From: a virus
Lineage: Duplodnaviria; Heunggongvirae; Uroviricota; Caudoviricetes
Length of the DNA stretch: 39,225 nucleotides
Virus record (IMG/VR): IMGVR_UViG_2574180019_000004
Span: 1 to 39,225 of that record
Reading direction: 5' to 3' (one strand)
Position numbers and translations under genes: made by a program. Under the pieces are notes generated by a model. That model worked only from the letters and a program-made list of their open reading frames with translations, had not been told where the DNA came from and searched no databases. Below, piece by piece: positions 5,777 through 37,200 of this stretch (the stretch's first letter is position 1; each line of letters starts with the position of its first letter).

Positions 5777-6361
5777 TTATTGTTTGTTTTTTTCGTTCTG
5801 GTTGATGACAAATTCAATGTAACTTTCGATCTTTGCTTTCTCGGTTTCGGGTAACAATGCGTAGCGCGAGCGGTCATAGTTGATGGTCGCAGGGTCGTGC
5901 GGGTGAATCAGTAATTCATAGCCGTGACGCCCGAATGCGGATGCAACATTCTCCAGGGTGGAAATGGAAACGCTGACCTCATTGTTTAACAGGCGGCTGA
6001 TTGTCACCTGGGCGACGCCGGATGCGCGGTGAAGTTTTCCCTGCGTTGAAAGGTCGCGGCTTTCGCTCATCCAGCGTTCCAGGTTGTGAGCCGCCAGTTG
6101 ACCAATGTCGCTTGGTCCGACAGGCTGAAAACCTTCCTGAGAAAGCGAGCGATCGATATCAAGCCAGTTACGGGGTTTATTGGCGGCAGCTTCAATTTTT
6201 CGCGCAACCTGGTCGCCGATAACCTTCTTGCCAAGAGCCCAGCGGTTTACCAGATTTGCCTGAGTTCCAAGTTTTTCTGCCATCCGCGTCTGAACACCAT
6301 TGAATTCACGGTCGATCAAGTCGTTGAGATTTTGCCTGCGGACGTCCTGGATACTTTTCAT
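5777..6361 (-). CDS. Prophage repressor, tandem HTH (XRE-like), no obvious autocleavage domain
   Basis: 194 aa; two HTH-like segments (around LGTQANLVNRWALGKK and SGVAQVTISRLLNNEVSVSISTLENVA); flanked on both sides by the recurring palindrome; divergent from Cro-like gene. Confidence 0.7.
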   Translation of the reverse strand: MKSIQDVRRQNLNDLIDREFNGVQTRMAEKLGTQANLVNRWALGKKVIGDQVARKIEAAANKPRNWLDIDRSLSQEGFQPVGPSDIGQLAAHNLERWMSESRDLSTQGKLHRASGVAQVTISRLLNNEVSVSISTLENVASAFGRHGYELLIHPHDPATINYDRSRYALLPETEKAKIESYIEFVINQNEKNKQ

Positions 6362-6416: not shown

Positions 6417-6479
6417 TTACCCAACAGGTAAATGCACCCCATAGGTAACTATCCTTGATTTTTGTTACCTTATGGGTGA
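6417..6479. promoter_or_regulatory. Right operator region (OR-like), tripartite
   Basis: Perfect TTACCcaacaGGTAA 6417-6431; variant cACCccataGGTAA 6435-6448; imperfect TTACCttatgGGTgA 6465-6479; lies between repressor and cro-like starts. Confidence 0.6.
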
Positions 6480-18703: not shown

Positions 18704-19690
18704 ATGGCTGTTAAAGGCTTAACTGCGCTAACGCTGGCTGACTGGGGTAAGCGCGTCGATCCAAACGGGAAAGTCGATAAGATTATCGAGCTTCTCGGTC
18801 AAACTAACCCGATCCTTCAGGATATGCCTTTTGTCGAAGGGAACCTTCCTACCGGACACCGAACCACCATTCGTTCTGGTTTACCTTCAGCTACCTGGCG
18901 TTTGCTGAACTATGGCGTACAGCCAAGCAAATCAACCACAGTGCAGGTAACCGATTCCGTTGGCATGCTGGAAACCTATGCTGAAGTCGATAAGTCACTG
19001 GCTGATCTGAACGGTAATACCGCCGAATTCCGCCTGTCTGAAGACCGCGCATTTATTGAAGCGATGAATCAGCAGATGGCGCAGACACTGTTTTATGGTG
19101 ATTCCAGCGTTAACCCTCAGCAGTTTATGGGACTGTCCTCCCGCTATTCCAGCCTGTCTGCGGGTAATGCTCAGAACATCATTGATGCTGGTGGCACGGG
19201 TACAGATAACACCTCAATCTGGTTAGTGGTGTGGGGCGAAAACACCGTGCATGGCATCTTCCCGAAAGGGCAGAAGGCTGGCATCCAGATGGAAGATAAA
19301 GGCCAGGTGACACTGGAAGATGCGAATGGCGGCAAGTACGAAGGCTACCGTACCCATTACAAATGGGACAACGGACTTGCTCTGCGTGACTGGCGTTATG
19401 TTGTTCGCATTGCAAACATCGATGTCAGCAATCTTTCAGAACCTTCCTCTGCCGCAAATATTGCGAAGTTGATGGTTAAAGCACTGCATCGCATTCCAAA
19501 TCGTGGCATGGGTCGCCCGGTGTTCTACATGAACCGCACTGTAGGCCAGGCTCTTGATCTGCAATCTCTGGAGAAAACATCTCTGGCGATCAGCGTAAAA
19601 GAGACAGAAGGCGAGTGGTGGACTTCATTCCGTGGTGTACCAATCCGTGAAACTGATGCGCTTCTGGAAACAGAAGCCCGCGTGGTGTAA
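18704..19690 (+). CDS. Major capsid protein
   Basis: 329 aa following scaffold gene with strong RBS GAGGAA; size and position typical; followed downstream by a terminator as after T7 gene 10. Confidence 0.7.
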   Translation: MAVKGLTALTLADWGKRVDPNGKVDKIIELLGQTNPILQDMPFVEGNLPTGHRTTIRSGLPSATWRLLNYGVQPSKSTTVQVTDSVGMLETYAEVDKSLADLNGNTAEFRLSEDRAFIEAMNQQMAQTLFYGDSSVNPQQFMGLSSRYSSLSAGNAQNIIDAGGTGTDNTSIWLVVWGENTVHGIFPKGQKAGIQMEDKGQVTLEDANGGKYEGYRTHYKWDNGLALRDWRYVVRIANIDVSNLSEPSSAANIAKLMVKALHRIPNRGMGRPVFYMNRTVGQALDLQSLEKTSLAISVKETEGEWWTSFRGVPIRETDALLETEARVV

Positions 19691-19741
19691 CGCCTGTTAT
19701 TAACCTGTGGGTCGTAACAGACCCACTAATGGAGAAAGAAG

Positions 19742-20179
19742 ATGATCACCGACAAACTGTTGATGTTCTCCGAAGCTCAGGCGGTTACGAATACCGCGGC
19801 TTCTACTGACGTAATCGATCTCGGTCCAATTGATGGAAACCGTCGCGATATCGGTGTGGGTTACCCGCTTGAGTTTTGGGTGCTGGTTAACGAATCCGCC
19901 ACGGCAAGTGGTGAGGCAACTGTAAACATCCAGTTGCAGACGAGTGAGAATAACAGCTCATGGACCACTATTTATGATAGTGGCGCACTGGCAAAGACCG
20001 CCCTGGCAGCAGGTAAACGAGTTGTTTCTGCAAAGGTGCCTGCCGGTGTTCAGCGATATCTGCGTGTTAACTACTCCGTCGCAACTGGCCCACTAACGGC
20101 CGGCAAATTCACTGCGGGTATCAGTCTGGATGTTGATGCCAATACGCCGTACCCGATCCGCTCAAAAGTAACTGGTTAA
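19742..20179 (+). CDS. Hypothetical virion protein (possible capsid decoration)
   Basis: 145-aa ORF with RBS GGAGAAAG; position after capsid gene. Confidence 0.5.
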   Translation: MITDKLLMFSEAQAVTNTAASTDVIDLGPIDGNRRDIGVGYPLEFWVLVNESATASGEATVNIQLQTSENNSSWTTIYDSGALAKTALAAGKRVVSAKVPAGVQRYLRVNYSVATGPLTAGKFTAGISLDVDANTPYPIRSKVTG

Positions 20180-29308: not shown

Positions 29309-31783
29309 ATGAGACAGGAATGTATACAAGCGGTCCAGCAGGCGGCGCAGCGCACGTTAACGGCGCGAGAAATACAGAACATTGAAGACCGCATTTATCG
29401 AAATATGCGCTCCATTGCTCGTGATGACCCGATGTCGTGGCGACAACTTTCCGAATCAGAACGGTTGTATCGTGCAGCACAATTGGCATCTGAAGAATTA
29501 CAGCGAGAAGCGGCATTAAAGAAACGTCGTGTGGCCCTCACTATAGCCGCACGTCAGAGATTGGATAAATTTATCAATAGCTATCAAGGGGCTGATGGGA
29601 AACTTGGCGCTCTTAACCGTACTATTGCTTTTAATGCAGACGGTAAATCGAATTTCCTCTCTGTTGAATCCAGAACAAAAGCCACCCGTGATTATGCATT
29701 GAGTCAATTGCAGGAGGCATTCGAAGCAGTTGATCCTCGCTTTTTTGGTCTGTTTGAAGATGAAGCGGGCGTACGTGACCTGGTATATGAAATGCGGGGG
29801 CAAAATACTGGCAATGCTAAAGCAAGAAAAGGTGCTAAGGCGTGGAGAGAAGTTACAGAGCTGCTGCGCCGCCGGTTTAATGATGCTGGTGGGGACATTG
29901 GCTATCTCGAAAACTGGGGGATCCCTCAACATCATTCTATGGAAAAGGTTGGGGCAGTATCAAAGGATAAGTGGGTTAGCGATGTTATAGGTAAGCTGGA
30001 TCGCAAATATTATATCCGAGCCGATGGACAACTGATGAACGATGCCGAGTTGTCTTCATTTCTTGGAGAGGCTTATAACACGATCGCTACTGGTGGGCTG
30101 AATAAGCTTACTGATACCGGAATGCGAATTTCCGGCGCACGTGCTAACCGTGGTAATGCATCACGACAGATACATTTCAAAGATGCAGATTCCTATCTGC
30201 AATATCAGCAACTTTATGGCGATCGCTCTCTATGGGAAATCATGGTCGGTCACCTGGAAGGTATCAGTAAAGATATTGCACTGGTGGAAACATATGGCCC
30301 AAACCCCGATCATGTTTTCCGCTCTCTTCTTGATCAGGTGAAGGCAGAAACGGCAACAGCTAACCCGAGTAAAACCGGTAAAGTCGAGCGGCTGGCGAAC
30401 AACACAGAGAATCTGTACAACTTTATTTCCGGAAAGACACAGCCTGTAGCGAATCCGCACATCGCGCGATGGTCTGACAATATCCGCAACTGGCTGGTTG
30501 CCAGCAGACTCGGATCCGCGTTGCTGTCATCGTTCTCTGATCTTGGAACCATGTATCTGTCTGCGAAGGTGACCAACCTTCCAATGAACCAGTTATTCCG
30601 CAACCAGCTTGAAGCTATGGACCCAACGAACCGTACTGAGCTTGCGCGGGCGCGCCGCGCTGGTCTGGCGATGGAATCTCTACTTGGCAGCGTTAACCGC
30701 TGGGCGATGGATAATATGGGGCCGTCTGTGTCTCGTTGGGCTGCAACGGCGGTAATGCGTGCCAGTGGGCTTACAGCATGGTCAGATGCGCACAAGCGCG
30801 CCTATGGCGTAACCATGATGGGAAGCCTGGGAGAAGTAGTGTCACGGACACCAGACCTTCGTAGCCTCGATGACTCTGATTTTCGTATCCTGAAAAGTAA
30901 AGGGATTACTGACACAGACTGGAGCGTATGGAAGCTGGCGCAACAGGAGGACTGGGGGAACGGTAATAATACGATGCTGACACCGGAAAGCATTATGCGT
31001 ATCCCTGATTCAGCAGTTAAACATCTTGGTGAGCCTGAACGCGTGAAATTTGAGGCAATGCGTAAACTGCTCGGTGCCGTAACTGAAGAAGTTGATATGG
31101 CTGTTATTACACCGGGCGCACGTGAGCAGATGTTCGTAGGGTCTGGTCTTCAGCGTGGAACATGGAAAGGTGAATTAACGAGAAGTGTTTTCCTGTTTAA
31201 ATCGTTCCCTATCTCGGTTGTTATGCGTCACTGGTCACGCGCTATGGGTATGCCGTCTGCTGGTGGGCGTGCAGCATATATAGCAACGTTTTTAGCAAGC
31301 ACAACCATGCTTGGTGCTCTTTCCATGCAGATTACTGATCTTATTAATGGGAGAAATCCAAAGGAAATGACCGGTGACCACATGGTTAAATTCTGGATAA
31401 ATGCATTTTTAAAAGGTGGCGGGGCTGGGTTGTACGGTGATTTTCTTTTCTCTGACCACACTAGGTACGGGAGCGGCGCGCTGGCGTCGATGCTTGGCCC
31501 GGTAGCTGGTCTGGTTGATGACGTAGTGAAGATAGCTCAGGGCATACCGCTAAATGCTGTGGAAGGGAAGAGTGAGCAGACTGGTGGTGATCTGGTTAAG
31601 CTGGGGAAGGGGCTGATGCCAGGTGCGAATCTCTGGTACTTGAAGGCGGCTCTCGATCATATGATCTTTAACCAGATGCAGGAGTATTTTTCACCAGGCT
31701 ATTTGCGTAAAATGGAGCAACGTTCGAAGAAAGAGTTTAACCAGACATACTGGTGGCGACCTCAGGATGTCACTCCGCAATAA
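29309..31783 (+). CDS. Internal virion/ejection protein (large)
   Basis: 824-aa ORF with RBS GAGG; last large gene before moron island. Confidence 0.55.
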   Translation: MRQECIQAVQQAAQRTLTAREIQNIEDRIYRNMRSIARDDPMSWRQLSESERLYRAAQLASEELQREAALKKRRVALTIAARQRLDKFINSYQGADGKLGALNRTIAFNADGKSNFLSVESRTKATRDYALSQLQEAFEAVDPRFFGLFEDEAGVRDLVYEMRGQNTGNAKARKGAKAWREVTELLRRRFNDAGGDIGYLENWGIPQHHSMEKVGAVSKDKWVSDVIGKLDRKYYIRADGQLMNDAELSSFLGEAYNTIATGGLNKLTDTGMRISGARANRGNASRQIHFKDADSYLQYQQLYGDRSLWEIMVGHLEGISKDIALVETYGPNPDHVFRSLLDQVKAETATANPSKTGKVERLANNTENLYNFISGKTQPVANPHIARWSDNIRNWLVASRLGSALLSSFSDLGTMYLSAKVTNLPMNQLFRNQLEAMDPTNRTELARARRAGLAMESLLGSVNRWAMDNMGPSVSRWAATAVMRASGLTAWSDAHKRAYGVTMMGSLGEVVSRTPDLRSLDDSDFRILKSKGITDTDWSVWKLAQQEDWGNGNNTMLTPESIMRIPDSAVKHLGEPERVKFEAMRKLLGAVTEEVDMAVITPGAREQMFVGSGLQRGTWKGELTRSVFLFKSFPISVVMRHWSRAMGMPSAGGRAAYIATFLASTTMLGALSMQITDLINGRNPKEMTGDHMVKFWINAFLKGGGAGLYGDFLFSDHTRYGSGALASMLGPVAGLVDDVVKIAQGIPLNAVEGKSEQTGGDLVKLGKGLMPGANLWYLKAALDHMIFNQMQEYFSPGYLRKMEQRSKKEFNQTYWWRPQDVTPQ

Positions 31784-31792
31784 GGAACAACA

Positions 31793-32206
31793 ATGAAGGA
31801 ATTATTGCTGTTATCGGTATTTTTGATATCCGCTTGCTCGACATCCTATGATGTTTATGACGGTGTTGATAAGGCATATTGCGACAAAGTTAAAATGGAT
31901 TTTTCTCTTGCCAAGACGGCGAAGGATAGTTGTATTGATCACTACGTCAAGACTTATACCAAGCCAGCATCATCGGCATCTGATATTGCTGAAGGTGCTG
32001 TGTTTGAGTGTAACAAGGTGATATCCATCGCAGCGAGTTCTTCATACGATGCTGCTGTATGTGCAATGGCTGAAAGAAACGGCATGTCAGTGCAAAAAGT
32101 TAATAGCATGATAAACAGTAATGACGAAGCCAAAATAAGAACTGATATCAGCTCGGTGAAAAAAGATGCCATGAACAGAGTTGTAAAATATCAGTCATCT
32201 TTATAA
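31793..32206 (+). CDS. Lipoprotein (moron; candidate superinfection-exclusion factor)
   Basis: Signal peptide with lipobox MKELLLLSVFLISAC-S; 137 aa; followed by palindrome and terminator. Confidence 0.7.
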   Translation: MKELLLLSVFLISACSTSYDVYDGVDKAYCDKVKMDFSLAKTAKDSCIDHYVKTYTKPASSASDIAEGAVFECNKVISIAASSSYDAAVCAMAERNGMSVQKVNSMINSNDEAKIRTDISSVKKDAMNRVVKYQSSL

Positions 32207-32263: not shown

Positions 32264-32950
32264 TCAGAAGAACCCTGCTTTGTCGTTGATGTACTCCGCG
32301 TGCGTCTGGATATCACGCAGGCATTTGTTCACACCGACGATGTAGCAGAACATGGTGGTCAACTCCGCCGCCGCGCCCGATACGTCGTGCCCGTCTTCCT
32401 GTAACTGGTTCAGCAGATTCATCAGCAGTGAGTTCTCCGTCAGGCCGAGAACACCAGACGGCGAGTGAATCAGACTGCGGTAGCCGGGCTTTAGTGGGGC
32501 GCTGTAGGTTTTGTTCTCTATCTTCATTGCCTGCATCACTGCTGATGCTGTGGCGTTGGCTACCTGGTCGGCAACCATCTTTATGCGTTCTTCTTGCGGG
32601 AGCGAGTTTTTAATGTAACTTCCGGTGCGGCGGATCTGAGGAAGAACCTCACCTGTAACCCATTTACGAAAGCGGTATGGGATAGTGCCTGGTGTCACCG
32701 CATCGCGGCAGCGGAGGATCAGTGTGTAGAGGCCTGACTCGTTGATAATATTGGTTTCGCCTTGACGGCCTAAGTTAAATTTAGCCCTTTCATCATCATC
32801 AAGAGATTTTATTGACATAGTGGGGTTTGTCAGTTGAAGAGCTTTAATAACGTCTTTGGCAACAAACCAAGGATTTCCATCAATAACAATGGCTCGAATG
32901 GTTGCTTCTGATTCAAAATGAAAAACAGATGGGGTTACGTTAGCAGTCAT
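32264..32950 (-). CDS. Bro-N domain antirepressor-like protein
   Basis: Start at internal ATG (MTANVTPSVFHFESEATIRAIVIDGNPWFVAKDV = Bro-N signature) with RBS AAGGTGA; C-terminal approx 70 aa paralogous to the small gene at 34096-34353. Confidence 0.75.
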   Translation of the reverse strand: MTANVTPSVFHFESEATIRAIVIDGNPWFVAKDVIKALQLTNPTMSIKSLDDDERAKFNLGRQGETNIINESGLYTLILRCRDAVTPGTIPYRFRKWVTGEVLPQIRRTGSYIKNSLPQEERIKMVADQVANATASAVMQAMKIENKTYSAPLKPGYRSLIHSPSGVLGLTENSLLMNLLNQLQEDGHDVSGAAAELTTMFCYIVGVNKCLRDIQTHAEYINDKAGFF

Positions 32951-33231
32951 AGTGATCACCTTTGTAGTTAGGTTAATCACCACTACCGACGCCAATCGGT
33001 TGGTGGTGAACTGTGCAGGGTTGGCGTAACCGGCTACAAAGGACCCGGCGCACCTTTCGGTGCCCCCACACAGCCCACCATAGAATAGGTGCGCTTTACA
33101 CATAAAAAAACCGCTTATGCGGCATATGTGCCTCTGTAGTAATCCGGGACGCCAATCCCGGCACTGGATTTTGCCAGTGCCCGATTACTATGGCACAAGA
33201 GGAGTGCGATGTAAATTTACCGTAAAGGTAA
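32951..33231 (-). promoter_or_regulatory. Structured 5' leader / candidate small RNA upstream of Bro-N antirepressor
   Basis: Hairpin 32977-33009 (12-bp stem, loop ACGCCAAT); complementary TTGGCGT at 33021-33027; hairpin 33050-33063; terminator-like ccgc-ttat-gcgg + A-run (33104-33122); three-helix element 33136-33191 with loop ACGCCAAT again; candidate -35 TTGATT / -10 TATCAT on minus strand. Confidence 0.4.
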
Positions 33232-33324
33232 TGATAAGCGCGAAGAAACATTGAAATCAACCGTATTTGGTTGATTGCGTTTAACGCTTGATCACCTGAA
33301 AGCAAGATATTACCTTTAAGGTAA
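33217..33324. promoter_or_regulatory. Two perfect operator palindromes in divergent promoter region
   Basis: TTACCgtaaaGGTAA 33217-33231 and TTACCtttaaGGTAA 33310-33324 (20 bp upstream of ATG of gene at 33345). Confidence 0.6.
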
Positions 33325-33344: not shown

Positions 33345-34073
33345 ATGGAAGTTTTCTGGATAGTTGTTGGTGTGGTTGCGGTGATTATTTACGTTATCAA
33401 CCAGAACAAGACTAAGATCTCTGATCGTACGGTCGTTAATCATAACAAAACGATAAAGACCGAAGATGGGGAGATAACGATTAATCGTACACAGGTGATA
33501 GAACACACCTCTACTCAGTTTCAAAAAACTGGAGGTAATGCGCCTAATATTTCCGCACCTCCTGCTTATGATAGTGCGGTAATCCAGACATATTATAAAC
33601 AGCAGGAGTTAGCAAAAGAGAGGCAACTGATTCAGCCAAAGCCGTTTACAGCTGAGATTCCACCTGGAGTGTCAACGCGTCCGGCATATCATGGAAGATT
33701 CCCTGGTGATGACATATCGTCTCAGTCATCTAAAAAAGCACCTCAGGCAATATCAGAGCCAGCAAGAATACCTTCTGTATCGCCGCCAAAAGAAGAATCA
33801 GCTAACAGAGTTTCAAGTGGTAGCAAGCAGTGCTTGCGATGCAGAATAAACCTTCCATATGAAAAATTCAGGAAATCGTCAAAAAATCCAGATGGATTGA
33901 CTAAATGGTGTGCAAGGTGTCTCGATGGCCCAAAGAATACACGCCATATGAAGTGGTGCCCAATTTGTAATGTCCGCAGAAAACGAACCAGCTTTTACCC
34001 TAATAATCAAAATGCGGACGGCTTAATGGCATGGTGCAAAACGTGCTGGGATGAGCACAAAGCGAAACGATAG
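33345..34073 (+). CDS. Membrane-anchored tandem zinc-ribbon protein (unknown function)
   Basis: N-terminal TM helix (VFWIVVGVVAVIIYVI) followed by basic NQNKTK; S/P-rich linker; two repeated modules KxCxRC...NPDGLxxWCxxC (CLRC...WCARC and CPIC...WCKTC); RBS GAGGAAAAG. Confidence 0.65.
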   Translation: MEVFWIVVGVVAVIIYVINQNKTKISDRTVVNHNKTIKTEDGEITINRTQVIEHTSTQFQKTGGNAPNISAPPAYDSAVIQTYYKQQELAKERQLIQPKPFTAEIPPGVSTRPAYHGRFPGDDISSQSSKKAPQAISEPARIPSVSPPKEESANRVSSGSKQCLRCRINLPYEKFRKSSKNPDGLTKWCARCLDGPKNTRHMKWCPICNVRRKRTSFYPNNQNADGLMAWCKTCWDEHKAKR

Positions 34074-34097
34074 GCCGCTCTTGCGGCCTTTAAATTT
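34072..34097. terminator. Intrinsic terminator shared by convergent genes
   Basis: ggccgc-tctt-gcggcc followed by tttaaattt. Confidence 0.55.
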
Positions 34098-34353
34098 ACC
34101 GGGTTTGTTTTCGTAATTGTTCGGCACAATAGTCGAGATGTGTTTGCAGATCCCGCATAGACATCTGTGAGCTGGTGACGTAGTTAATCAGTGCAGTCAG
34201 TTCGGCAAGTGGGCCATCGACATTAAATCCATCCTTATCGAGATCCCGGAGTAATTTCATCAAGTGCGATCCCTCCACCAGTGACCTGACGCCTCCCGGC
34301 GTGTGAATCCTTTCGGTAAATCCGTCTTCCAGTGGATAGTGATACTGCTGCAT
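34096..34353 (-). CDS. Small antirepressor-like protein (85 aa), LexA-box controlled
   Basis: ATG 34353 after GGAGAAG; paralogous to Bro-N protein C-terminus (IHTPGGVRSLVEGSHLMKLL...AELTALINYV vs IHSPSGVLGLTENSLLMNLL...AELTTMFCYI); LexA box about 20 bp upstream. Confidence 0.6.
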   Translation of the reverse strand: MQQYHYPLEDGFTERIHTPGGVRSLVEGSHLMKLLRDLDKDGFNVDGPLAELTALINYVTSSQMSMRDLQTHLDYCAEQLRKQTR

Positions 34354-34372
34354 CTTATCTTCTCCATGCAAT

Positions 34373-34392
34373 AACTGTATATTTATACAGTA
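34373..34392. promoter_or_regulatory. LexA (SOS) box
   Basis: aaCTGTATATTTATACAGta = CTGT-N8-ACAG, 18/20 match to consensus TACTGTATATATATACAGTA. Confidence 0.7.
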
Positions 34393-34429
34393 GCAAATAA
34401 TTTGTTTGCTATCCAGCACGTTTTGCAAA

Positions 34430-34444
34430 TCACCTGAAAGGTAA
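34430..34444. promoter_or_regulatory. Variant operator tCACCtgaaaGGTAA between antirepressor-like and tail fibre genes
   Basis: Right half perfect, left half CACC variant as at 6435 and 6802; ATGTGGTT motif at 34477. Confidence 0.4.
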
Positions 34445-34548
34445 TATCTTTTCGTATTTATGGATTATCTATCCATATGTGGTTTTTCAGGTAATAGAAT
34501 AACCAGATATGCGGCGCAACGGGTGCTGCGACTATCTGGAGATTTAAC

Positions 34549-37200
34549 ATGACGGTCTCAACCGAAGTTGACCACAACGAATACACTGGTAACGGAGCTA
34601 CGACATCATTTCCGTATACCTTCCGTATTTTCAAAAAATCCGACCTGGTTGTTCAGGTGTCTGACCTGAACGGGAACGTAACAGAATTGGTTCTGGATAC
34701 TGACTACACAGTAACCAATGCTGGAGGATATAATGGCGGTAATGTAATTCTGTCGAAGGCGTTGGCTAACGGTTATCATATTTCTATATCACGAGAGCTC
34801 CCGGTTACGCAGGATACTGATTTGCGTAATCAGGGTAAGTTCTTCGCTGAGGTACATGAAGACGCGTTCGATAAACTGACAATGCTTATTCAAAAGTGTT
34901 TTTCATGGATGAGGTTAGCACTTATAAAACCAAGCATTCTGGCTAACTATTATGATGCAAAAAATAATAAGATATCAAATCTAGCAAATGCCACTGACAG
35001 AAACGATGCTGTCAATAAAGGTTATGTTGATGATCTTTTTACTGGAGGTGTAACGCCTACACCTAACAGCGCTAAAAACGATATTTTTACAAATCACCAA
35101 AGAAAGATTGTAGCTACGATGCCGCTTCTTTTTCCTGAATATGATGCGATTATGGCTGCTAACCCGTCAGCAACTTATATGTATCCTCAAGGATTCTGCG
35201 TTAGCGAAGATTTGATATACATCACTTATCCATTTGAGCCTAAACAGACGAATAATGTCGTCGCAGTATTTAACATATCTGGTATTTATCAAGGTTATTT
35301 CTATGTTCAGGCTGGCGGCCCAGGCTTCGCTGCTGAAGGAATCGTGGTTACGTCAGACTATGGCCCCAAAAAAATGTTTGTTGGTCACACAAACGGAATA
35401 CTGCGTGAATTTAATATGGAGGGGGCATTATACGGAAGCAATCTGCCTCTTGTACAAAACCATGATGTTGGATTATTCAACCAGTTCAGCTACAGAAGAG
35501 GTATATGGCTCGTTGAGCAGAATGCGCCAGAAGTAGGACAGAAAATCACAAGAACTGTACTTGCAGTGTTCGACAGTGGTTTCAATCGCCTGTCAACTAT
35601 AACGCTGCCGTTACATGATGTTGGGTATGTAACTAAAAGCACCTCACCTTATGCGCCTTATTTCAACAAGCGTCAGGGTATTGCGGTAGGTGATAACTAC
35701 TTTGTCTGCGGCTATGGCGGCTTCATAGCTGATGGGGCAGGAAGCGCAGGATATAACGAATATCAGGGCAGCAAAGTTTTTAACCCTGACGGTACAAAGC
35801 GAACTGAATCAATGCTTCATCCTCAGGCCATGATGGATTTAATGAAAGCCGCAGGATTGAACGTCACTCGCATAGAAAATGAAGGCGTTTGTGTTTCTCA
35901 GGATGGAAAATCCATTTATTCACTTTACATTCATCAGGAAAGAACTGGCTCTGAACCTTACAATTCAGGTTTGGTTATTTTCGAAGATTTCTCCACTAAT
36001 AAAGATGCTATCGATTTTACACCTGCATCCAGGCTTTACCGCGGATTTGATATCGATCACGCGAGCATTGGGGTATATCCCCGTAGTGCGAAGGGGATTG
36101 TTAACCCTGTAGATGGTACGTTGTTCACTAACATGACTGAAATTCTTCGCTATATGCAGGAGATGAGTCAGAAGGCATTTAATTTTTACACAGGGACTGT
36201 CAGCATTGCTGATATATCTGGCGTGGCAATCCCTTCCAGCACATATGTTGAAATACTGAATGCGAATAATCAGACTTTTATAGTCAACTATTATTCATCT
36301 GATAGTGGCATTAGTTATTTGGTTGCAACTAATCCTTCTGGTGACTTTGTATTTGTGCGCCAGCGACCGGCACAGTGGGCATCTAACTTAACCATTCAGC
36401 AAAACGCAGATCCTGATACAAACCAATTAAACCGCATCACTGCATCATCATATGCCGGTGCAACTACAAACTCTCAGAAAATATTGGTCCTTGACCAGCA
36501 GGCTACAGCTAGCGCAAATAGCTTGGTATTGGGCGGTAGTTCTTCTGTGTTTAGGTCTGCCACCACGGTGGATATTGCATGCAACAGCGACCCGACAGCA
36601 TTGGGAGGAACCATACGCTGGCGGTTTTATGATACAGGTCTTCGCCCGTTTGCTGACAATACCTATAATTTTGGTCAGGCATCGTTTCGTATTAAAGACG
36701 CCTACTTTGCAAATGCCCCAACCGTTTCATCAGATGCCACGCTGAAAACCAATCCCGAGGCAATATCAGATTTAAGTGAAATGCTTTCTTCTGATAGAGA
36801 CAGCATTCTTGATGCCTGGGGCGATATTTCTGTTGTGGCGTATCGATGGCTCGACGCTATATCCATGAAGGGCGATGGTGCCAGATGGCATTTTGGCGTC
36901 ATGGCTCAGCAGGTAAGAGATGTATTCCTGGCGCACGGAATTGATGGAACCAGATTTGGCCTTCTTTGCTATGACGAGTGGGACGATATTTTTGAGCCGG
37001 TAATCGCGACTAAAGAGATTACCGATGCGTCTGGTGAGTTGGTCACCGTCGAATATGACACCGGAGAACAGAGGCTGGTTAAAAAAGCGGGTAGTTCATG
37101 GGGCATACGGCCTGACCAGTGCGCTTGGCTTGAGGCTGCATATCAGCGCCGCCGATGCGATCGTATTGAAGAGCGACTCGAACTATTGGAATCAAAATAA
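34549..37200 (+). CDS. Tail fibre / tailspike with T7 gp17-like N-terminal adaptor and C-terminal intramolecular chaperone (S74-like) domain
   Basis: 883 aa; N-terminus resembles remembered T7 gp17 N-terminal domain; C-terminal approx 150 aa (from DATLKTNPEAISD onward) resembles endosialidase-type auto-cleaving chaperone. Confidence 0.8.
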   Translation: MTVSTEVDHNEYTGNGATTSFPYTFRIFKKSDLVVQVSDLNGNVTELVLDTDYTVTNAGGYNGGNVILSKALANGYHISISRELPVTQDTDLRNQGKFFAEVHEDAFDKLTMLIQKCFSWMRLALIKPSILANYYDAKNNKISNLANATDRNDAVNKGYVDDLFTGGVTPTPNSAKNDIFTNHQRKIVATMPLLFPEYDAIMAANPSATYMYPQGFCVSEDLIYITYPFEPKQTNNVVAVFNISGIYQGYFYVQAGGPGFAAEGIVVTSDYGPKKMFVGHTNGILREFNMEGALYGSNLPLVQNHDVGLFNQFSYRRGIWLVEQNAPEVGQKITRTVLAVFDSGFNRLSTITLPLHDVGYVTKSTSPYAPYFNKRQGIAVGDNYFVCGYGGFIADGAGSAGYNEYQGSKVFNPDGTKRTESMLHPQAMMDLMKAAGLNVTRIENEGVCVSQDGKSIYSLYIHQERTGSEPYNSGLVIFEDFSTNKDAIDFTPASRLYRGFDIDHASIGVYPRSAKGIVNPVDGTLFTNMTEILRYMQEMSQKAFNFYTGTVSIADISGVAIPSSTYVEILNANNQTFIVNYYSSDSGISYLVATNPSGDFVFVRQRPAQWASNLTIQQNADPDTNQLNRITASSYAGATTNSQKILVLDQQATASANSLVLGGSSSVFRSATTVDIACNSDPTALGGTIRWRFYDTGLRPFADNTYNFGQASFRIKDAYFANAPTVSSDATLKTNPEAISDLSEMLSSDRDSILDAWGDISVVAYRWLDAISMKGDGARWHFGVMAQQVRDVFLAHGIDGTRFGLLCYDEWDDIFEPVIATKEITDASGELVTVEYDTGEQRLVKKAGSSWGIRPDQCAWLEAAYQRRRCDRIEERLELLESK

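Follow-up and report, generated by a model that had tools for sequence, protein, structure and literature searches.

The locus analyzed here raises the question of how DNA damage in the host could induce a prophage whose repressor, as an earlier sequence-only reading described it, carries two helix-turn-helix (HTH) segments and no S24 peptidase motif. The window, meaning the whole stretch of 39,225 nucleotides that was analyzed, is an epsilon15-like, phiV10-type E. coli prophage belonging to Uetakevirus. The earlier reading had attributed SOS induction to a LexA-controlled antirepressor and not to repressor autocleavage, and this is supported by the orthology of both Ant and Rep to the proteins of phage SPC32H. 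Judged by this homology, the locus very probably represents an ant-rep lysis-lysogeny switch, in which a LexA-gated Ant would act against an uncleaved Rep and which is orthologous to the SPC32H system. The proposed mechanism gains its support because Ant is ~87% identical to that of SPC32H, Rep is homologous, and the gene order as well as the position of the box match those of SPC32H. The features around the small gene are as follows.

34096..34353, minus strand: ant, 85-aa antirepressor, orthologue of SPC32H Ant (PDB 5D50_E, phrog_450)
34362..34365, minus strand: Shine-Dalgarno sequence GGAG of ant, 8 nt before the ATG, kept in all aligned loci
34373..34392, no strand assigned (read on the plus strand): LexA (SOS) box AACTGTATATTTATACAGTA, 18/20 consensus match
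34387..34415, minus strand: putative ant promoter, placed by eye from conservation and from the p95 promoter of phage 186
34072..34089, no strand assigned: G+C-rich hairpin GGCCGC-AAGA-GCGGCC (terminator scan and RNA fold)
34549..37200, plus strand: tailspike / tail fibre gene with a Pfam Peptidase_S74 chaperone domain, divergent from ant

The open reading frame of ant runs from the ATG at 34353 to a stop at 34096 on the minus strand and comprises 85 codons. When its product was compared with all solved-structure sequences, a single match was obtained, namely chain E of 5D50, which is entitled 'Anti-repressor protein' (E 1.4e-46), and the alignment spans residues 2-84 (83 of the 85 residues) with ~87% identity. 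Against the annotated ant of SPC32H (KC911856), the identity is 86.7%. As well, the protein matches phrog_450 (E 7e-48), and PHROG 450 is marked 'unknown function'. Searches of Pfam and NCBIfam returned no model for Ant, and the NCBIfam search gave no family for the Bro-N protein or the 242-aa protein encoded nearby either. A tblastn search with Ant over 50,697 phage records led to 35 records, all of which are epsilon15-like podoviruses (Uetakevirus) or near kin, with sources in Escherichia, Salmonella, Enterobacter, and Klebsiella. SPC32H and SPC32N are among them, and there the gene is annotated as 'ant: anti-repressor protein'. Ant is 98-100% identical in the E. coli phages phiV10, TL-2011b, O157 typing phages 9 and 10, and others, and the label 'hypothetical protein' is carried by the gene in phiV10, TL-2011b, epsilon15, and the matching E. 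coli records listed. Moreover, the ant region is present in 531 of 5426 complete E. coli genomes. By its sequence, the small gene is the E. coli counterpart of the SPC32H Ant antirepressor.

The target of such an antirepressor would be the prophage repressor, which is encoded far from ant and is listed here with the operator palindromes.

5777..6361, minus strand: rep, 194-aa prophage repressor, SPC32H Rep homologue, no S24 peptidase domain
6417-6431 and 6465-6479, no strand assigned: two operator palindromes in the rep-cro intergenic region (palindrome search)
5643 and 5705: two operator palindromes 3' of rep (palindrome search)
33217-33231 and 33310-33324, no strand assigned: two operator palindromes 5' of isrK and of the divergent 242-aa gene
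34430..34444, no strand assigned: operator-like palindrome TCACCTGAAAGGTAA in the ant-tailspike spacer, kept in all aligned loci
151, 6802, 8748, 8810, and 15693: further operator palindromes (palindrome search)

Rep matches 5D50_A ('Repressor') over residues 1-190, i.e., over its full length (E 4e-42), and 5D4Z_A, which is the C-terminal domain of SPC32H Rep (E 4e-20). It shares 42% of its residues with SPC32H Rep, and the phiV10 repressor has the same sequence throughout (100% identity); the window is therefore a phiV10-species prophage. According to Pfam, Rep contains an HTH_3 domain at residues 106-147 and a weaker YdaS-like HTH at residues 21-61, and these HTH domains are all that was matched, in agreement with the earlier description; the Pfam check for an S24 domain that the same reading had called for was run, and Peptidase_S24 gave no match at E up to 0.01. 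The final 43 residues of Rep are ~49% identical to those of SPC32H Rep by hand count, slightly above the 42% overall. The phage records with a Rep match (37) are also nearly the same set as those with an Ant match (35). With Rep at 42% but Ant at 87% identity, the contact between Ant and Rep is therefore assumed for the pair in the window.

The operator palindrome TTACCT-N3-AGGTAA, searched with up to 2 mismatches, occurs in 16 copies in the window against 0.77 expected, and nearly all of these are intergenic. SPC32H possesses 18 copies at matching places, including three in the rep-cro intergenic region, and in the epsilon15 record the site homologous to 34430..34444 is annotated as 'protein_bind: repressor'. 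Given this spread, Rep therefore probably controls several transcription units directly, among them the second antirepressor cassette described below.

A near-consensus SOS box with its core at 34375-34390 had been recognized in front of the 85-aa minus-strand gene, at a distance given as about 20 bp, and both statements were confirmed. The 16-nt core of CTGTATATTTATACAGTA reads CTGTATATTTATACAG and lies exactly at 34375-34390, and 21 nt separate it from the ant ATG. The 20-mer at 34373-34392 differs from the E. coli LexA consensus TACTGTATATATATACAGTA at 2 positions and is the sole site in the window with 3 or fewer mismatches, with 0.00 such sites expected from 100 dinucleotide-preserving shuffles of the 39-kb window; the runner-up 20-mer has 7 mismatches. 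The box is thus unique in the window and beyond chance. The loose pattern CTGT-N8-ACAG is found three times in the window against 0.54 expected, and just one of these copies, the ant box, has an all-A/T spacer, the spacers of the other two being G+C-rich. By the same window scan, no second LexA box is located before the Bro-N gene or before rep.

The box probably acts on a promoter that we place directly over it. The putative ant promoter consists of a -35 TGGATA (34415..34410), a 17-nt spacer, and a -10 TACTGT (34392..34387), so that the LexA box opens with the six bases of the -10, which thus lies inside it. A block CTGGA(T/A)A that spans the putative -35 is kept in 8 of 8 aligned loci, and the annotated p95 (tum) promoter of coliphage 186 likewise has a -10 TACTGT inside its LexA box. 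The hexamers TGGATA and TACTGT are weak and were missed by the consensus promoter scan of the window; because that generic scan made no call there, the promoter is our own reading. Downstream, the G+C-rich hairpin lies 3' of the ant stop, between the convergent ant and 242-aa genes, and is probably a bidirectional terminator; in the epsilon15 record, a rho-independent terminator is annotated directly after the ant homologue gp19. Between the box and this hairpin there is ant alone, which would make it monocistronic, and no dinI homologue is encoded there.

Comparison with relatives places box and gene in a conserved setting. The ant of SPC32H (19676-19936, minus strand) is divergent from the tailspike gene tsp, which flanks it on one side, while large injection-protein genes and a gene for a 46-aa membrane protein flank it on the other. 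In the window, a gene for an 824-aa protein (29309-31783) is followed by ant and then by the tailspike gene (34549-37200), and the position and orientation of ant relative to the injection-protein and tailspike genes are the same as in SPC32H, with ~2.3 kb of extra genes before ant on the injection-gene side. The earlier reading had stressed the placement of ant in the late region beside the tail fibre gene; the location is correct, but it is not a peculiarity of this prophage, being the standard position in the phage genus. The ant-tailspike intergenic regions of the window and SPC32H align end to end, and the window box in ant orientation, TACTGTATAAATATACAGTT, aligns onto the SPC32H box, TACTGTATGTTTATACAGTG, which is the only LexA-like site in the SPC32H genome. 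In that stretch, SPC32N differs from SPC32H by a single base change, ACAG to AAAG, which falls inside the box. Kim & Ryu (2013) reportedly found that the box mutation of SPC32N results in constitutive Ant and an always-lytic phage.

The survey of relatives covered 16 loci, which come from seven distinct phages (SPC32H and SPC32N being counted as two loci) and from eight bacterial genomes found by Ant alignment, and which represent about ten genera (Escherichia, Salmonella, Enterobacter, Citrobacter, Erwinia, Pseudocitrobacter, Scandinavium, Buttiauxella, Klebsiella, and Superficieibacter). For each locus, the best LexA-like 20-mer was sought over the whole 3.2 kb (1.2 kb for SPC32N), and in 16 of 16 it was located ~19-23 nt 5' of the ant start. 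CTGT-N8-ACAG is intact in 10 of the 16 loci as well as in the window, and its inner 8 nt vary, the variants seen being ATAAATAT, ATGTTTAT, ATAAGCAT, ACATATAT, ACATTTAT, ATAAACAT, ACATAAAT, and TTATTCAT. Fixed half-sites with a varying spacer are the pattern expected of a site that is kept for LexA. In the four Klebsiella loci and the Superficieibacter locus, ATGT-N8-ACAG is found instead of CTGT-N8-ACAG.

The Ant-Rep pair of SPC32H was reportedly characterized by Kim & Ryu in 2013 (J Virol 87:11775) and by Kim et al. in 2016 (PNAS; PDB 5D50, 5D4Z). According to later papers, the SPC32H mechanism has been established experimentally, and the conclusions of both studies are cited in PMC7380047, PMC9638917, PMC9986798, and a bioRxiv preprint. 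According to PMC7380047, self-cleavage of LexA allows Ant to be made, which inhibits the repressor by protein-protein interaction. PMC9986798 describes the C-terminal part of SPC32H Rep as an HTH-like domain and a tetramerisation domain, the latter being also the Ant-contacting part. The bioRxiv preprint presents the Ant mechanism as a repressor trapped in a non-functional conformation.

Transferred to the window, the mechanism would run as follows. In the lysogen, host LexA would occupy the box at 34373-34392, which overlaps the putative -10, and keep ant silent, and a Rep tetramer would sit on the TTACCT-N3-AGGTAA operators genome-wide and keep the lytic genes off. Upon DNA damage, RecA-stimulated self-cleavage of LexA would permit ant transcription, and Ant, which is a tetramer in SPC32H, would bind the C-terminal tetramerisation domain of Rep. 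Ant is then predicted to split Rep tetramers into dimers, which would leave the DNA with Rep uncleaved, leading to prophage induction. For the phage in the window, we infer LexA binding, Ant-Rep contact, Rep stability, and promoter usage by homology. In independent agreement with such a mechanism, a DNA-damaging microcin has been found to induce phiV10-species Uetakevirus prophages of gut E. coli 21- to 47-fold (bioRxiv 10.64898/2026.05.26.727859).

In addition to ant, the window carries a second antirepressor-like gene, which belongs to a small-RNA cassette on the same strand.

32264..33103, minus strand: Bro-N antirepressor with an Ant-like C-terminal domain (AnrP-like; Pfam Bro-N, E 8e-20)
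32999..33085, minus strand: C4-type antisense RNA (Rfam RF01695, 79.5 bits; gathering score 45)
33104..33180, minus strand: IsrK-type Hfq-binding sRNA (Rfam RF01394, 76.8 bits; gathering score 50)

The proposal that the small gene is paralogous to the C-terminal domain of the Bro-N protein holds well, as Ant aligns with residues 198-275 of that protein without gaps (41% identity over 78 aa, E 3e-16), and the C-terminal part of the Bro-N protein itself matches phrog_450 (E 7e-36). The Bro-N gene likely starts at the ATG at 32950 and encodes 228 aa, and the 51 in-frame codons 5' of this ATG match Gifsy-1 orf45 in position. The IsrK- and C4-type RNAs are located directly 5' of the gene. The operator at 33217-33231 ends 1 nt 5' of a putative isrK -35, TTTACA. 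The immI region of phage P1 (c4-icd-ant) has a layout similar to that of isrK-orf45-anrP. Like these two regions, the cassette in the window combines, in this order, an IsrK sRNA, a C4-type RNA over a short frame, and an antirepressor-like gene; unlike them, it encodes a Bro-N protein whose C-terminal domain is paralogous to the phage's own LexA-controlled Ant. A further difference is that the short upstream frame is continuous and in frame with the Bro-N gene, which has also been noted for Shigella dysenteriae (PMC4825925). In Gifsy-1, IsrK unlocks translation of the antirepressor-like protein of isrK-orf45-anrP (PMC4825925).

The presence of this cassette suggests that induction might be brought about mainly or redundantly by the Bro-N / Ant-domain protein (32264-32950), with the LexA-controlled Ant being a trigger or a cross-inducer in trans. 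Its C-terminal domain, at 41% identity to Ant, and its antirepressor PHROG matches are consistent with such a role, the same cassette recurs 3' of ant in Enterobacter phage Tyrion and Klebsiella phage ST512-KPC3phi13.3, and antirepressors controlled by a phage repressor have precedents in FsoA of Fels-1 (PMC3121763) and AnrP of Gifsy-1 (PMC4825925). However, SPC32H, epsilon15, and the BUCT554 ant stretch have the same ant-rep pair and no Bro-N cassette, which is absent from SPC32H by Rfam search and is not annotated around ant in the other two, and the Bro-N gene has no LexA box. As two Rep operators and an antisense-RNA gate precede it, this gene should stay silent until Rep has been removed, which argues against Bro-N-led induction, and we regard that explanation as improbable. 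Much less probable still is a reading in which the box either serves the tailspike gene on the other strand or is an A/T-rich palindrome that arose by chance, and in which the small protein has an SOS role other than antirepression, e.g., a DinI-like one. The box does lie within the 195-bp intergenic region common to ant and the tailspike gene, and the small protein is mostly 'hypothetical' in databases and falls into no Pfam or NCBIfam family. Against this, the distance from the box to the start codon is 21 nt for ant and 158 nt for the tailspike gene, no such box is expected by chance, and the small protein is ~87% identical to a chain crystallised with its repressor and has no significant similarity to Tum or DinI.

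It is hardly credible that Rep is inactivated by RecA-dependent self-cleavage through a module too divergent to be detected, for which the general prevalence of cI/LexA-type repressors is the sole support. The Pfam result at E ≤0.01 speaks against it, as does the alignment of the entire C-terminal part of Rep with the C-terminal domain of SPC32H Rep. According to PMC7380047, protein-protein contact with Ant is what inhibits the repressor in these Salmonella prophages, repressor cleavage not being the main outcome. Rep was accordingly rejected as a self-cleaving repressor of the LexA / lambda cI type, its C-terminal half being of the SPC32H Rep type. The LexA-gated ant-rep switch thus remains the preferred explanation. 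Within it, the cassette might form the second stage of a two-stage circuit, in which the LexA-gated Ant would act first and the IsrK/C4-gated Bro-N protein would follow after Rep leaves 33217/33310; this is a tentative and rather unlikely extension. If it were true, the Bro-N protein would lock the switch by positive feedback or act in trans, in the latter case on Uetakevirus prophages of other immunity types that reside in the same host. That Ant is far better conserved than Rep between E. coli and Salmonella phages (87% against 42%) would fit cross-immunity antirepressors, comparable to the crosstalk among Gifsy prophages.

The mechanism is already known, having been published in 2013-2016 for the sister phage SPC32H with both genetics and structure, and the finding as stated therefore contains no new biology. 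Its practical value is one of annotation, i.e., that ant can be named instead of being called a 'hypothetical protein', and the correct name explains the response of phiV10-type prophages to bacteriocins and agents that damage DNA, which occurs despite a cleavage-less repressor. A point of possible experimental interest is the pairing of the LexA-gated Ant with a second Ant-domain protein, which would be gated by small RNAs and by the repressor.

The earlier reading had also assigned the locus to a Tum/Gifsy-type design. The logic of this comparison is right, while kinship to Tum was not borne out, there being no sequence relation. In phage 186, the LexA box overlaps the -10 of the tum promoter and Tum binds a non-cleavable repressor; ant, with its putative -10, would follow the same logic. 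The boxes of SPC32H and epsilon15 differ little from the 186 box, TACTGTATGTTTATACAGTA. Ant was tried as a Tum homologue and rejected (pairwise BLASTP E 0.056, 14/47 identities); no 186-like record is among the 35 tblastn matches of Ant, which over the phage collection are Uetakevirus-like records only, and Pfam gave no DinI match in Ant. One half of Tum (146 aa) is DinI-like, a part that the 85-aa Ant lacks, and phage 186 is a P2-like myovirus with another repressor family than the phage in the window. The antirepressors GfoA, GftA, and GfhA of Gifsy-1/2/3 are small, are controlled directly by LexA, and bind uncleaved repressors (Lemire et al. 2011, PMC3121763), and they resemble Ant in being small, LexA-gated, and coded outside the immunity region (PMC3121763). 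Unlike ant in the window, which is monocistronic and adjoins the tailspike gene, the Gifsy antirepressor gene is the second gene of a dinI-led operon located 1.3 kb 3' of the replication genes (PMC3121763). Moreover, the complex in Gifsy is a heterotetramer A2B2 (PMC3121763), whereas that of SPC32H is a hetero-octamer according to PMC9638917. The proper family is the SPC32H-type Ant; Tum and the Gifsy antirepressors share the design, but Tum is not of this family and the Gifsy antirepressors probably are not.

Compared with SPC32H itself, the window has an orthologous Ant (~87%) and an orthologous Rep (42%) of the same length and two-domain layout, a LexA box ~19 nt before the ant ATG, the same arrangement of injection genes, ant on the minus strand, and the tailspike gene, and the same genome-wide operator palindrome family. 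The two differ in that the phage in the window belongs to the phiV10 species, has E. coli as its host, and carries a strongly diverged Rep, and in the box spacer, which is ATAAATAT in the window and ATGTTTAT in SPC32H. Furthermore, between the injection genes and ant, SPC32H has the 46-aa membrane protein gene only, while the window has an insert of ~2.3 kb relative to SPC32H, whose genes are a lipoprotein-like one, those of the IsrK/C4/Bro-N cassette, and one for a 242-aa zinc-ribbon membrane protein.

Between phiV10-type and SPC32H-type phages, the putative antirepressor Ant (34096-34353 in the window) retains about 87% identity, whereas the prophage repressor Rep (5777-6361) retains only 42%. 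Moreover, Ant identity does not run parallel to Rep identity in phage Tyrion, where the values are 85.5% and 78%, respectively. The comparison suggests that Ant recognizes a conserved surface of Rep, and that it could work across immunity types.

The palindrome TTACCT-N3-AGGTAA, counted with up to two mismatches, occurs 16 times in the window against 0.77 expected, and nearly all copies are intergenic. Their start positions include the following:

151, 5643, 5705, 6417, 6465, 6802
8748, 8810, 15693, 33217, 33310, 34430

One copy is annotated as a repressor site in the epsilon15 record. The palindrome is probably the Rep operator, through which many promoters would be controlled simultaneously.

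Upstream of ant, the Klebsiella loci L007-L009 and L017 and the Superficieibacter locus L014 carry the box ATGT-N8-ACAG (about positions 1457-1477 of these loci), whose left half-site has another base in place of its key C; this change is kept throughout the group. This box may represent a weakened LexA site or the mark of a different control. As well, a block ATTCTATTACC..AAAAACC.TATATG.AT (in ant orientation), which lies upstream of the tailspike gene at 34475-34505 (plus strand), is kept in all eight aligned loci from five genera and probably belongs to the tailspike or late promoter. The IHF site annotated beside the operator in the epsilon15 record lies nearer to ant than this block.

Several further features were identified in the window:

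31793-32206, plus strand, 137-aa protein carrying LISAC, a signal of the lipoprotein type
32264-32950, minus strand, Bro-N antirepressor gene, directly downstream of the IsrK and C4 RNAs
32999-33180, minus strand, IsrK sRNA (RF01394) and C4 antisense RNA (RF01695)
33345-34073, plus strand, 242-aa protein carrying two zinc-ribbon repeats (CxxC...CxxC) and, at its N terminus, a membrane helix
15294-15370, minus strand, tRNA-Arg (anticodon TCT), within the terminase-portal region

The 137-aa protein matches phrog_8691 (unknown function), and its gene may be a moron or exclusion gene. The 242-aa protein matches phrog_6762, also of unknown function, with weak matches to Stc1 and endonuclease VII-like proteins; its gene sits between the isrK cassette and ant, an arrangement shared with phage TL-2011b. 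The IsrK-C4-Bro-N cassette is also present in phage Tyrion and Klebsiella phage ST512-KPC3phi13.3.

Compared with the window, SPC32H has the same palindrome in the same distribution (18 copies) and a tRNA-Arg likewise in the terminase-portal region. It lacks the 242-aa protein gene, and a 46-aa membrane protein gene follows its injection-protein genes instead of the lipoprotein-like one. The layout of the IsrK-C4-Bro-N cassette resembles that of Gifsy-1 isrK-orf45-anrP and P1 immI, with the orf45-like frame fused in frame to the Bro-N gene in the window.
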